DNA of 32,720 nt from Chromatiales bacterium (GTDB lineage Bacteria > Pseudomonadota > Gammaproteobacteria > Chromatiales > Chromatiaceae): positions 1-32,720 of the forward strand of contig JASFUT010000001.1 of the NCBI GenBank assembly GCA_050050175.1, read 5' to 3'. A program made the translations under genes and the position numbers. Positions 13,399 through 20,142 of this stretch are shown here, piece after piece. Position 1 is the first letter of the stretch, and every line of letters starts with the position of its first letter. Under the pieces are notes generated by a model. It was not told the origin of the DNA. It worked only from the letters and a program-made list of their open reading frames with translations, and made no database searches.

Positions 13399-16300
13399 TC
13401 ACCGGAAGTCCCGGGAGCGGGTCGGAAGCCGGCCCAGCAGGTCGCTGTGGTCCAGCAGCCGTCTGGCCACCACGTGCAGGACGCCGCCCTCGCGCTGCAC
13501 ATCCCCGACCACACCAAGCAGACGGGCGTTGAGCATGACCAGGCGCTGGCGATCCGCCACCTGCCGCCAGATCACCAGATTGATCTGCCCCGTCTCGTCC
13601 TCCAGAGTCACAAAGGTGACGTTGTTGGCGGAGGCCGGGCGCTGGCGGTTGATCACCAGCCCCCCGGTGCGCACCCGATCCCCGTGGCGCAGCCCGTCGA
13701 GGTCCCGGGCGCAGAGCAGCCCGCGCCGGCTCAGCTGCCGCCGCAGCAAGGCCAGGGGATGGCGCCTCAGGGTCAGCCCCAGGCTGGCGTAGTCGGCGAG
13801 AATCGCCTGTCCTTCGGTGGGCGCGGGCAGATCGGGCACCTGCCCCGCATCGGTGGGCCGCCCCGGTGGCGCCGCGTCCGTCGGCAGGTCGAACAGCGGA
13901 AGCGGCGTCTGAACGCCCGTGACCTCCCAGGCGGCGCGGTGGCGGTCGCCGGCCAGCCCCGCCAGGGCGTCGGCGGCGGCCAGCGACTCCAGATCCCGCC
14001 GGTCGAGACGTGCCCGCCGGGCCAGGTCCTGCACGTCCCGGAACCGCCGCTGCGCCCGGGCCGCCAGCAGCCGCGCGGCGCCGGCGCGGGACAGGCCTTT
14101 GACCATCAGCAGGCCCAGCCTCATCGCCGGCGGGGACGCCGCCCCAGCGCGGGACGGCTCCAGGGTGCAGTCTCCGTCGCTCGTGTGCACGTCCACCGCA
14201 AGGACCTCCACGCCGGCGCGCCGGGCCGCCTGCACCAGCTGGGCGGGGGCGTAGAAGCCCATGGGCTGGCTGTTGAGCAGGGCGGCGAAGAAGGCCGCCG
14301 GCTCATGACACTTGAGCCAGGCGGAGACGTAGACCAGCAGGGCGAAGCTGGCGGCGTGGGACTCGGGGAAGCCGTACTCCCCGAAGCCCAGGATCTGCTG
14401 ATAGATCCGGCGGGCGAAGGCCTCGTCGTAGCCGCGCTCCGTCATGCCCCGGATCAGTCGGTCCTCGAACTGCTCCAGGGTGCCCCGGCGGCGCCAGGCG
14501 GCGATGGAGCGCCGGAGCCGGTCCGCCTCGCCGGGGCTGAAGCCCGCCGCCACCATGGCGACCTTGATCACCTGCTCCTGGAAGATGGGCACGCCGAGGG
14601 TGCGGCCCAGCACCTCCCGGACCGCCTCCGAGGGATAGGTCACCTCCTCCAGCCCCTGGCGGCGCTTGAGATAGGGGTGGACCATGTCCCCTTGGATAGG
14701 TCCCGGACGGACGATGGCCACCTCGATCACCAGGTCGTAGAAGCGCTCGGGGCGCAGACGCGGCAGCATAGCCATCTGGGCGCGGGACTCGATCTGGAAC
14801 ACGCCCAGGGTGTCGGCGCGCCGGATCATCGCATAGACGGCCGGATCCTCCGGGGGGACGTTGTGCAGGCCCAGGGGGTTGCCCGGGCCGGGCGGATTCT
14901 TGCTGCCGGGCTGGAGACCATCGGGCTCGCGGCTGGCAGCCGCTCCTACCGTGCCCGCGCCTCCCGCAGGGGCGCTCGCTGAGCGCGAACCTCCGTGGCC
15001 CGAAGCACCCGTCCCGGGCCCGGGTCCGCCGGGCTCGCGGCTGGCAGCCGCTCCTACGGCGCCCGCGCCTCCCGTAGGAGCGCTCGCTGAGCGCGAACCT
15101 CCGTGGCCCGAAGCACCCGTCCCGGGCCCGGGTCCGCCGGGCTCGCGGCTGACAGCCGCTCCTACGGCGCCCGCGCCTCCCGTAGGAGCGCTCGCTGAGC
15201 GCGAACCTCCGTGGCCCGAAGCACCCGTCCCGGGCCCGGGTCCGCCGGGCTCGCGGCTGACAGCCGCTCCTACCGTGCCCGCGCCCCCCGCAGGAGCGCT
15301 CGCTGAGCGCGAATCCATTTGCGCCTCTGTGTCTCTGCGGCTCGGTCTTTCACTCCACCCGCGATAGGCATTGATCAGATCGAAGGCGCGGCGCACGGCC
15401 GAGAGCATGCCGAGCGCCAGGCAGTCCACCTTGAGCAGCCCCAGGGCCTCCAGGTCGTCCTTGTCCCACTGGATCACCGTGCGCTCGGCCATCGCGGCGT
15501 TCTCGATGGGCACCAGCCGGGAGAGAGGCCCGCGGGAGATGACGAAGCCCCCCACGTGCTGGGACAGGTGGCGCGGGAATCCCAGGATCTCCCGGCTCAT
15601 GACCAGCACCCGACGCAGCAGGGGGTTGCCGGGATCCAGACCCGCCTCGCGCACCCGCTCGGGGTCGATGGTGCCGCCGTCCCACCAGGTGAGGTTGTGG
15701 GCCAGCCGGTCCACCTGGTCCAGGTCGAGCCCGAGGGCCTTGCCCACGTCGCGCACCGCGCTCTTGGGCCGATAGCTGATCACCGTGGCCGCCAGCGCCG
15801 CCCGGTCCCGGCCGTACCTGGCGTACACGTACTGGATCACCTCCTCGCGGCGCTGGTGCTCGAAGTCCACGTCGATGTCCGGCGGCTCGTCGCGCTCCCG
15901 GGAGATGAAGCGCTCGAACAGCAGCTCCATACGCGCCGGGTCCACCTCGGTGATGCCGAGCGCATAGCAGACCGCCGAGTTGGCCGCCGAGCCCCGGCCC
16001 TGGCAGAGGATGCCGCGGCTGCGGGCGAAGCGCACGATGTCGTGGACCGTGAGGAAATAGGGCTCGTAGCGCAGCTCGGCGATGAGCGACAGCTCATGCT
16101 CGACCAGGCGGCGCACCTTCGCCGGCTCTCCCCCCGGCCAGCGCCGTTGCAGCCCCTGCTCGGTCAGCTCGCGCAGCCGGGCGCCGGGGTCCCGTCCCGG
16201 GGGCACCAGCTCGTCCGGGTACTCGTAGCGCAGCTCCTCCAGGGAGAAGGTGCAGCGCCGCGCCACCTCCAGGGTCTCGGCCAGCAGCTCCGAAGGATAG

Positions 16301-16995
16301 AGCCGGGCCAGCCCGGCCCTGCCGCGCAGGTGACGCTCGGCGTTGGGCTGCAGGGCATGGCCGGCCTCGGCGAGGGGCACTCCCAGGCGGACGGCGGTGA
16401 GCGTGTCCTGCAGGGCACGGCGCCCGCGCTCGTGCATCAGCGCCCCGCCGCAGGCGACCAGTGGCAAGCCGCACTGCGCCGAAAGCCCGCTCAGGGTCTC
16501 CAGCCAGGCCCGGTCCCGGCCGCTGCGGTGCAGCTCCACGCCGATCCAGGCCCGGCCCGGAAAGCGCTCCGCCAGCCAGCCACCGTCGGCCGGGTCCGGA
16601 TCCCCGGAGGGCAGCCACAGCGCCAGGCATCCTTCGAAGCCCGCGGTCAGATCCGCGCGCGCCAGCTCGCAGGCGCCCTTCCCCGCCCGCCGCCGGCCGC
16701 GGGTGATGAGCTCGGAGAGGTCGCCGTAGCCCTCCCGGTCCGCGGCCAGCACCACCAGCCGGGGCCCGTCGGTCAGACGGATATCGCTGCCCGGGATAAG
16801 GGCCAGACCGCAGTCCCGGGCCTCCACGTGGGCCCGCACCACACCGGCCAGGGAGCACTCGTCGGTCAGCGCCAGCGCCGCGTAGCCCAGCTCGTGGGCG
16901 CGGCGGACCAGCTCCTGCGGATGGGAGGCGCCGGTCAGAAAGCTGAAGTTGGACAGGCAATGCAGCTCGGCATAGCCCGGAGCGGTGCTGGGCAT
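13399..16995 (-). CDS. dnaE2: Error-prone DNA polymerase DnaE2 (ImuC), with a ~130-aa low-complexity repeat insertion
   Basis: 1198 aa. The N-terminus [23 protein letters not shown] is diagnostic of DnaE2 rather than DnaE1. PHP, palm and fingers motifs are present ([42 protein letters not shown]), with an OB-fold tail. A LexA box lies immediately upstream. Confidence 0.92.
14923..15312 (-). repeat. In-frame 108-bp tandem repeat (about 3.6 copies) inside dnaE2
   Basis: Unit starts fall at 14941, 15049, 15157 and 15265 (period exactly 108 bp, 36 codons). Copies 2 and 3 are identical, and copies 1 and 4 differ at a handful of positions. The unit encodes SRSASAP(T/A)GGAG(A/T)VGAA(V/A)[18 protein letters not shown]. 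Confidence 0.95.
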
Positions 16996-17013: not shown

Positions 17014-17033
17014 TACTGTACTTACATACAGTA
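17014..17033 (-). promoter_or_regulatory. LexA (SOS) box upstream of dnaE2
   Basis: TACTGTACTTACATACAGTA is a perfect CTGT-N8-ACAG with the flanking TA..TA of the gamma/beta-proteobacterial consensus. It lies 19 nt upstream of the dnaE2 ATG, in the only AT-rich patch of that intergenic region. Confidence 0.85.
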
Positions 17034-19851: not shown

Positions 19852-20142
19852 GCGCGCCTCCCCCGTTCTTGTTGCTGATCCGCCGCCGGCGGGCCTTGCC
19901 CTCCCCCTAATCATATCTGACCGGGAGCGGGGTTCAGGCTGCCGGCGTGATACGCTGCGCTTGCCCGAACCGCGGGCTGGTTGGTCCCATCGTTGGCGGC
20001 TGGCGGCCGCTCGCACCAATCCATCAGCCAGCGCCCGCCCGGTTGTCCCTGCCGACTGTCTACCGTCTCCCCTCTACATGACCCTCCCTTCGACCCGGGG
20101 ACCCGATCATTGGCGGCGGCTTCGCCGCCGGGCCCCTTCGGT

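Follow-up and report, generated by a model that had tools for sequence, protein, structure and literature searches.

The bacterial interspersed mosaic elements (BIMEs) of Escherichia coli, the clusters of repetitive extragenic palindromes (REPs) of Pseudomonas, and the REPINs (Bertels & Rainey 2011) are extragenic by definition. REPs inside genes have also been reported. Di Nocera, De Gregorio & Rocco (BMC Genomics 2013, 14:522; PMC3733652), who defined the GTAG- and CGTC-tagged REP superfamilies, found that many of the genes concerned are replication or repair genes, and that the REP-tagged open reading frames (ORFs) are often the only REP-tagged coding sequences of their species. The published cases include dnaE2, which encodes an error-prone DNA polymerase; here, the REP-encoded residues are 934–971 in Opitutus terrae, 166–246 (81 aa) in Sphingomonas wittichii, 128–157 in Rhodopseudomonas palustris, and 175–203 in Erythrobacter litoralis. 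The largest REP-encoded stretches listed are 43–82 aa long, and the authors speculate that REP tags modify repair proteins. An older in-frame analogue is the Rickettsia palindromic element (RPE; Ogata et al. 2000, Science 290:347, as cited in PMC3184786 and PMC3733652). Here, we describe a REP array inside the dnaE2 gene of a bacterium of the family Chromatiaceae (contig JASFUT010000001.1), located in a 32,720-nt stretch of DNA that we refer to as “the window”. REP-tagged dnaE2 was already described in 2013 (PMC3733652); what is new here is a larger example and a new site within DnaE2. We conclude, with a probability of roughly 85%, that the array is a cluster of GTAG REPs belonging to this genome, amplified locally and in frame, and that it is translated as a disordered surface loop.

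The array was delimited by Tandem Repeats Finder (TRF), run on the window (Table 1). It has a period of 108 bp and 3.6 copies, with 96% matches and 0% indels (score 714). Read in register, copies 2 and 3 have a single difference, G/A at unit position 15; moving the register by 15 nt makes two full 108-nt units identical. The reading frame is that of the dnaE2 ORF. The array encodes residues ~561–692, a segment rich in Gly, Ala, Pro, and Ser that is flanked in the protein by a conserved motif on its upstream side and by an LGVFQIES motif on the other. Each unit, read on the coding strand, is made up of an inverted subtype A REP (TTCGCGCTCAGCGAGCGCTCCTAC), a 16-nt spacer, a subtype B REP (GTAGGAGCGGCTGYCAGCCGCGAG), and a 42-nt linker; the two subtypes themselves are GTAGGAGCGCTCGCTGAGCGCGAA (A) and GTAGGAGCGGCTGCCAGCCGCGAA (B). 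From this anatomy it follows that the “3.6 copies” comprise three linkers and four head-to-head REP doublets, all complete. The tag region is read as GTA-GGA-GCG, so the TAG inside the GTAG tag is avoided, and every copy number stays in frame because the lengths of a doublet (66 nt) and of a linker (42 nt) are divisible by three. Two of the eight tags in the array have decayed to GCAG. The linker is present as three exact copies, all of them in the array, and none was found elsewhere with blastn-short in the whole metagenome-assembled genome (MAG) to which the window belongs. The array therefore grew by local tandem duplication, not by repeated insertion.

The REPs themselves are abundant in this MAG, a short-read assembly of 417 contigs that is 83% complete and has a G+C content of 70%. 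A search of the genome for the 108-bp unit, as suggested with the original prediction that was made from the sequence of the window, matched ~60 other places through the REP parts, the linker being confined to the array. A fuzzy census that allowed ≤4 mismatches in 24 nt found 161 REPs (82 A and 79 B) in 70 clusters; the reversed genome, used as a control, gave 1. The exact pattern GTAGGAGCG-N8-11-CGCGAA occurs 80 times in the MAG and 0 times in the control, and GTAGGAGCG starts nearly all REP copies. Neighboring REPs in the census are arranged head-to-head in 47 pairs, tail-to-tail in 36, and in the same orientation in 8. Most head-to-head pairs (33 of 47) are A/B doublets with gaps of 14–24 nt, four of which are those in dnaE2, and the doublet with a 16–17-nt spacer is also found at many extragenic sites. 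Each REP, folded alone as single-stranded DNA (−7.3 and −6.4 kcal/mol; z = −3.47 and −1.99), gives a hairpin with a stem of 6 bp and a loop of 3 nt, and its GTAGGA tag is left unpaired. A doublet forms a single long hairpin (−22.9 kcal/mol; z = −2.59), with pairing between the two REPs being partial because the stems of subtypes A and B differ.

The elements of the array thus have the features by which GTAG REPs are recognized: a short palindrome with a stem-loop, an unpaired GTAG, dispersed copies, a mainly extragenic location (by the approximate check described below), and occurrence as singlets, dimers, and clusters. The doublet has the structure of a REPIN, i.e., two inverted REPs, a short spacer, and one long hairpin. 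We conclude that the unit consists of GTAG-tagged REPs organized as BIME-like clusters of REPIN-like doublets. The original prediction had the coordinates, period, approximate copy number, frame, and flanking motifs right. Its claim that two copies are identical at the nucleotide level holds in the shifted register, and the recent amplification that it proposed is borne out. As an interpretation, an in-frame tandem repeat in a loop stands; what the prediction missed is the nature of the unit, which is a cluster from a dispersed GTAG REP family of ~160 copies, not low-complexity sequence that arose de novo. Calling such an insert unusual was an overstatement, with REP-tagged dnaE2 genes in the literature (PMC3733652).

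Table 1. Features of the dnaE2 locus in the window, and one transposase gene elsewhere in the MAG
Feature	Position	Strand	Basis or remark
dnaE2 (error-prone DNA polymerase, ImuC) coding sequence, 1198 aa, intact	13399..16995	-	NF004225, Pfam
In-frame REP array: four head-to-head REP doublets and three 42-nt linkers	14922..15313	-	~130 aa; TRF, REP census
REP doublet 1: B 14926-14949 (tag at right end), 16 nt, A 14966-14989	14926..14989	.	Fuzzy REP census, sequence
REP doublet 2: B 15034-15057, A 15074-15097	15034..15097	.	Exact GTAGGAGCG...CGCGAA match at 15074-15097
REP doublet 3: B 15142-15165, A 15182-15205	15142..15205	.	Long hairpin as single-stranded DNA
REP doublet 4: B 15250-15273, A 15290-15313 (tag decayed to GCAG)	15250..15313	.	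Sequence, REP census
42-nt linker, three copies	14992..15033, 15100..15141, 15208..15249	.	Array-only sequence, blastn-short
LexA (SOS) box CTGT-N8-ACAG, within a longer palindrome	17016..17031	.	~20 nt upstream of the dnaE2 ATG
Solo REP, subtype B, between a K+ channel gene and a histidine kinase gene	19993..20016	-	REP census
IS200/IS605 Y1 transposase, near contig end	C20:20243-20599 (L041:1456-1887)		NF033573

To place the locus among other REP clusters of the genome, we made an approximate check in which eight long ORFs spanning REP clusters were scanned with Pfam, besides dnaE2. Four of the eight have Pfam domains only downstream of the REP, in which case the REP probably sits in the 5′ leader. 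The other four have no Pfam domain and are probably spurious, the genome being high in G+C. Among the scanned clusters, the one in dnaE2 is the only one with conserved Pfam domains on both sides.

The resemblance to the published REP-tagged dnaE2 genes (PMC3733652) is close. In both cases, short tagged palindromes (GTAG or CGTC in the published examples) lie in frame in the gene for an error-prone polymerase, often as the sole REP-tagged ORF of the genome, and doublets or groups are amplified together with flanking DNA. There are also differences. The site here is the loop between the palm and fingers (residues ~550–705), where none of the listed cases lies, and a near-perfect 108-bp tandem encoding ~130 aa has formed in a loop that has been struck in several related lineages. 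At ~130 aa, this is the largest REP-encoded segment that we found on record, compared with 43–82 aa (PMC3733652). With BIMEs, Pseudomonas REP clusters, and REPINs, the array shares the alternation of two REP subtypes, the pairing of REPs head-to-head and tail-to-tail, the grouping into tandem clusters, and a hairpin preceded by a GTAG tag; GTAGGAGCG...CGCGAA is near the Pseudomonas GTAG-1 type. Unlike BIMEs and REPINs, the dnaE2 cluster lies in a reading frame, and no REP-flanked gene for a REP-associated tyrosine transposase (RAYT) was found in the MAG. RPEs, as they are described in the citing papers, are likewise selfish palindromic repeats in frame within conserved protein genes, tolerated as surface segments. 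However, they are 105–146 bp long, carry CGTC tags, and occur in AT-rich obligate intracellular bacteria, whereas here the repeats are 24-nt GTAG REPs amplified in tandem, and the host is a free-living gammaproteobacterium with 70% G+C. The resemblance to RPEs is therefore functional only.

The gene that hosts the array otherwise looks like a working, LexA-controlled dnaE2, judging by its sequence. The protein scores 1449.9 bits against the NCBIfam model NF004225, “error-prone DNA polymerase” (cut-off 939), and 572.6 against the model of the replicative DnaE1, NF004226, which is under the cut-off of 1002. This agrees with its initial identification as a 1198-aa DnaE2. The Pfam domains are PHP, DNA_pol3_alpha (273–527), DNA_pol3_finger (708–855), HHH_6, and OB, in that order. 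All ~190 columns that are invariant in an alignment of 50 DnaE2 sequences are retained, including D373, D375, D377, and D524, which we take to correspond to D401, D403, and D555 of E. coli, in part from an alignment with the E. coli alpha subunit. In E. coli Pol III alpha, the third catalytic Asp is followed by a palm helix, and the insert corresponds to a position directly past this helix. It aligns between G580 and P582, replacing a single residue there, and so falls in the palm/fingers junction loop, where it had been expected. The insert had also been described as disordered, and structure prediction agrees. In an AlphaFold2 model built with the 50-sequence alignment (mean predicted local distance difference test score, pLDDT, 81.3; predicted template modeling score 0.81), residues 561–700 have pLDDT <50 (25–36 in the insert region) and no secondary structure, while the remaining polymerase is modeled with confidence. 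An intein or other self-removing insert was considered and rejected: there is no Pfam family in residues 548–705, a region with pLDDT of 25–36 and without secondary structure.

Upstream of dnaE2 is a perfect LexA box, the only match to CTGT-N8-ACAG in the window (0.28 expected by chance). The gene is thus predicted to have an SOS operator of its own and to be under LexA control, despite not being next to imuA and imuB; the upstream genes encode a hemerythrin and a TrkA-type channel. Elsewhere in the MAG, contig C130 (L136:51-2553) has lexA (TIGR00498, 230 bits), followed by an ORF of 260 aa and an IMS-like ORF cut short by the end of the contig. These genes are probably a lexA-imuA-imuB cassette that is unlinked to dnaE2.

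How uncommon is an insert at this position? The two motifs that flank the loop are mostly 49 aa apart (in 66 of 94 orthologous loci, and in 70 of 118 related protein clusters), but in the window DnaE2 they are 208 aa apart. The insert is thus real, and its length is unusual, and the alignment of orthologues revealed no common, conserved, non-repetitive insert at this loop. Expansions of ≥30 aa among the 118 clusters are concentrated here: 12 are in the 49-aa loop, 11 in the C-terminal part (457 aa), and 3 in the N-terminal part (522 aa), such that the loop accounts for 12 of 26 large expansions. Eleven other intact orthologues have loop inserts of 30–195 aa. At the DNA level, at least four different REP types are confirmed in this loop. 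The loops of two relatives, P0009 (L137) and P0012 (L141), contain GTAGGAGCG-CCGTCCACGG/CCATTCCTGG-CGCGAT REPs that are also present in their intergenic flanks, and that of a third, P0081 (L138), contains an E. coli-like GTAGGCCGGATAAGCG REP doublet. The concentration of expansions in the loop, together with REPs of several types, shows that the palm/fingers loop is a recurrent site of REP insertion, repeatedly colonized by each species' own REP type. In other relatives, the loop is REP-free. A syntenic relative with 80% identity, P0007 (L139), has a 63-aa loop without REPs, whose sequence (…TGGAGSHG…) resembles the linker and right flank of the array.

Among genome contigs scanned outside the genus of the window, the nearest named relatives are MAGs of Chromatiaceae, Thiodictyon, and Lamprocystis, which makes Chromatiaceae the probable family. 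The closest comparison is within the genus of the window. A maximum-likelihood tree places the window's genome (G000) outside a pair of congeners, i.e., (G000,(G001,G002)), with support of 100/100. In G002, the loop is 56 aa long and has no REPs. In G001, the same palm/fingers loop contains an array with a 108-bp period, 3.3 copies, and 97% identity, built from the dominant REP type of G001, GTGGGAGCG...CGCGAT. Copies of this type number 116 in G001 and 1 in G000, whereas those of the G000 type number 80 in G000 and 36 in G001. The spacers differ too, being 28 and 28–30 nt in the G001 array versus 16/42 nt in the G000 array. The differences in REP family, spacers, and flanks favor independent colonization of the two genomes over orthology, as far as sequence comparison can show. 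Two non-sister congeners thus both have an array with a 108-bp period and ~3.5 copies. The identical period is possibly a coincidence, with in-frame periods of 84–192 bp occurring elsewhere.

The locus had been flagged as copy-number-variable between strains or as an assembly hazard, and it is one or the other, or both. Two further members of the protein cluster that includes the window DnaE2, a form of 1126 aa and a fragment of 785 aa, come from other assemblies. Outside the array, they match the window protein with 100% identity, but they have 1.6 and 2.6 copies, respectively, compared with 3.6 in the window. The units missing from the shorter forms are the two near-identical inner ones, a loss that fits unequal recombination or assembly collapse alike, and the differences between assemblies may reflect either process. 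As to mobility of the REPIN-like doublets, these differences in copy number are all that was seen. At the level of reads, we used Logan contigs and unitigs (k=31) from four wetland-metagenome runs. Unitig joints with short sides (20–27 nt), which derive from REP copies elsewhere, were set aside, and the comparison of depth relied solely on the linker unitig, which is specific to the array. In all four runs, unitigs lead from the unique flanks on either side into the terminal REPs. The ratio of linker unitig depth to flank depth is 2.7, 3.15, 2.5, and 3.2 in the four runs, which fits three linkers and thus the 3.6 copies of the window. The presence of the array in dnaE2 is well supported.

These data bear on whether the array could be an assembly artefact, with REP sequence chimerically joined into dnaE2 or the copy number of 3.6 wrong. 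The MAG is a fragmented short-read assembly with many contigs ending in REPs, otherwise identical assemblies differ in copy number with shorter forms such as the collapse of inner units would give, and no Logan contig bridges the array. However, three separate assemblies put the array at the same codon, the unitigs link it to both unique flanks at a depth that matches three linkers, and a congener and several relatives have REP clusters in the same loop. An artefact is, in our view, highly improbable. Less probable still is a home-grown, low-complexity tandem repeat that arose by replication slippage and is unrelated to any dispersed or mobile element. The exact period without indels, the confinement of the linker to the array, and the resemblance of the linker and right flank to the loop of the close, syntenic, array-less relative all speak for slippage. 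Yet two REP hairpins make up 66 of the 108 nt, the rest of the genome has ~150 copies that match them exactly or almost exactly, and the doublet with its characteristic spacer recurs at many extragenic sites. The dispersed copies refute this explanation in practice, and its remaining probability is close to negligible.

The other alternatives concern what the array does. It might disable or cripple DnaE2, making the gene a pseudogene in the making or lowering the activity of the mutasome. The 130–159 added residues begin ~25 residues past the third catalytic Asp, D524, the imuA and imuB genes lie apart from dnaE2, and Di Nocera et al. have speculated that REP tags modify repair proteins (PMC3733652). 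Nevertheless, the frame is open across 1198 codons, the invariant residues of 50 orthologues are all retained, the LexA box is intact, other intact orthologues have large inserts in the same loop, and there is a candidate lexA-imuA-imuB cassette elsewhere in the genome. We therefore regard a crippled enzyme as unlikely. A somewhat slighter chance, and hence a very small one, goes to an adaptive copy-number switch (contingency locus), or a regulator at the level of DNA or RNA (an attenuator, an mRNA stabilizer, or a gyrase or IHF site), that tunes SOS mutagenesis. Assemblies from a single population do differ in copy number, REPs are found again in this loop in several lineages, and REP tags are enriched in repair genes (PMC3733652). 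However, all copy numbers are in frame, which leaves no on/off switching; the RNA fold is unexceptional; a permissive, disordered loop in a rarely expressed gene explains the recurrence equally well; and the variation in copy number may be assembly collapse. About as doubtful as a crippled enzyme is the idea that in Chromatiaceae-like gammaproteobacteria, each lineage with its own REP family, the loop is a preferred rather than merely permissive landing site for REPs, and that a loop of variable length might tune mutasome activity. If that were true, it would link the dynamics of selfish repeats to SOS mutagenesis.

The explanation that we favor, a local cluster of the genome's own GTAG REPs, implies the following sequence of events. 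A head-to-head A/B REP doublet with a 16-nt spacer would have landed in frame in the palm/fingers surface loop of DnaE2, and we infer that the original insertion was made by a REP-mobilizing process of the RAYT type. The doublet and 42 nt of unique DNA next to it were then amplified in place to four doublets, through unequal recombination or slippage between repeats. The product would be read as a structureless, Gly/Ala/Pro/Ser-rich loop of ~130 residues that is tolerated by the polymerase fold and is presumably neutral, or nearly so, for the enzyme. The loop would be struck repeatedly because it is permissive. Several results weigh against this account. No canonical RAYT was found in the MAG with PF01797 and NF047646, in an assembly that is incomplete and whose contigs often break at REPs. 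The strongest Y1 transposase belongs to the IS200/IS605 family (149 bits) and is not a RAYT (Table 1). Two RAYT-like ORFs stay just below the NF047646 cut-off of 80 bits (79.6 and 78.5), and in the assembled DNA neither is flanked by REPs. As RNA, the whole array folds no better than shuffled sequence (z = −1.14), so a special RNA structure is unsupported. Finally, no Logan contig from the four runs bridges the array, such that its copy number is not fixed by spanning sequence.

With REPs as its source, what appeared to be an odd disordered insert is reassigned to a known process, the colonization of repair genes by selfish REP palindromes. Its interest lies mainly in the recurrent targeting of one loop and in the ambiguity of copy number. 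The expansions and REPs found in this loop provide a concrete data set with which to ask whether REP tags in repair polymerases are neutral hitch-hikers or have consequences for mutagenesis. In addition, dnaE2 can be flagged as a locus where short-read assemblies give differing protein lengths for one gene.

Several minor observations concern the loop in relatives. By eye, the 56-aa loop of G002 possibly contains a decayed solo REP, which we do not claim. The DnaE2 of P0081 (L138:8342-9094) is Chromatiaceae-like and has a loop of 244 aa; besides its REP doublet, this loop has a separate palindrome with a 10-bp stem, CCCCTCTCCC...GGGAGAGGGG, which is shared with P0089 (L140). In a genome of another genus, G004, the loop (L019) is 93 aa long and without REPs, has a right flank like that of the window, and includes a 9-bp repeat of 3.4 copies (HLRHLRHLR) at 1459–1489. 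No tandem repeats were found in the very long DnaE2 proteins of L064 and L060. Relatives also have REPs at a second site inside dnaE2, where a linker joins the HhH and OB domains (G001:C38:387091-387121 and L137:12930-13035); this site matches a stretch of low pLDDT at residues ~1044–1049 of the window protein.

Other observations concern the REP family of the MAG. The solo REP at the K+ channel gene (Table 1) illustrates the ordinary, extragenic habit of the family inside the window, and another solo REP lies just upstream of the candidate lexA cassette, at C130:6022. Extragenic arrays of 7–9 REPs of the same A and B subtypes are found at C354:1920-2337, C131:1281-1907, and C88:7766-8044, with periods of ~84, 192, and 91 bp, respectively. 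Many MAG contigs start or end within ~100 nt of a REP (e.g., C88:40, C126:9, C198:54, C304:72, and C360:27). The REP family is a main cause of assembly breaks in this MAG, and the true number of REPs is likely greater than 161.

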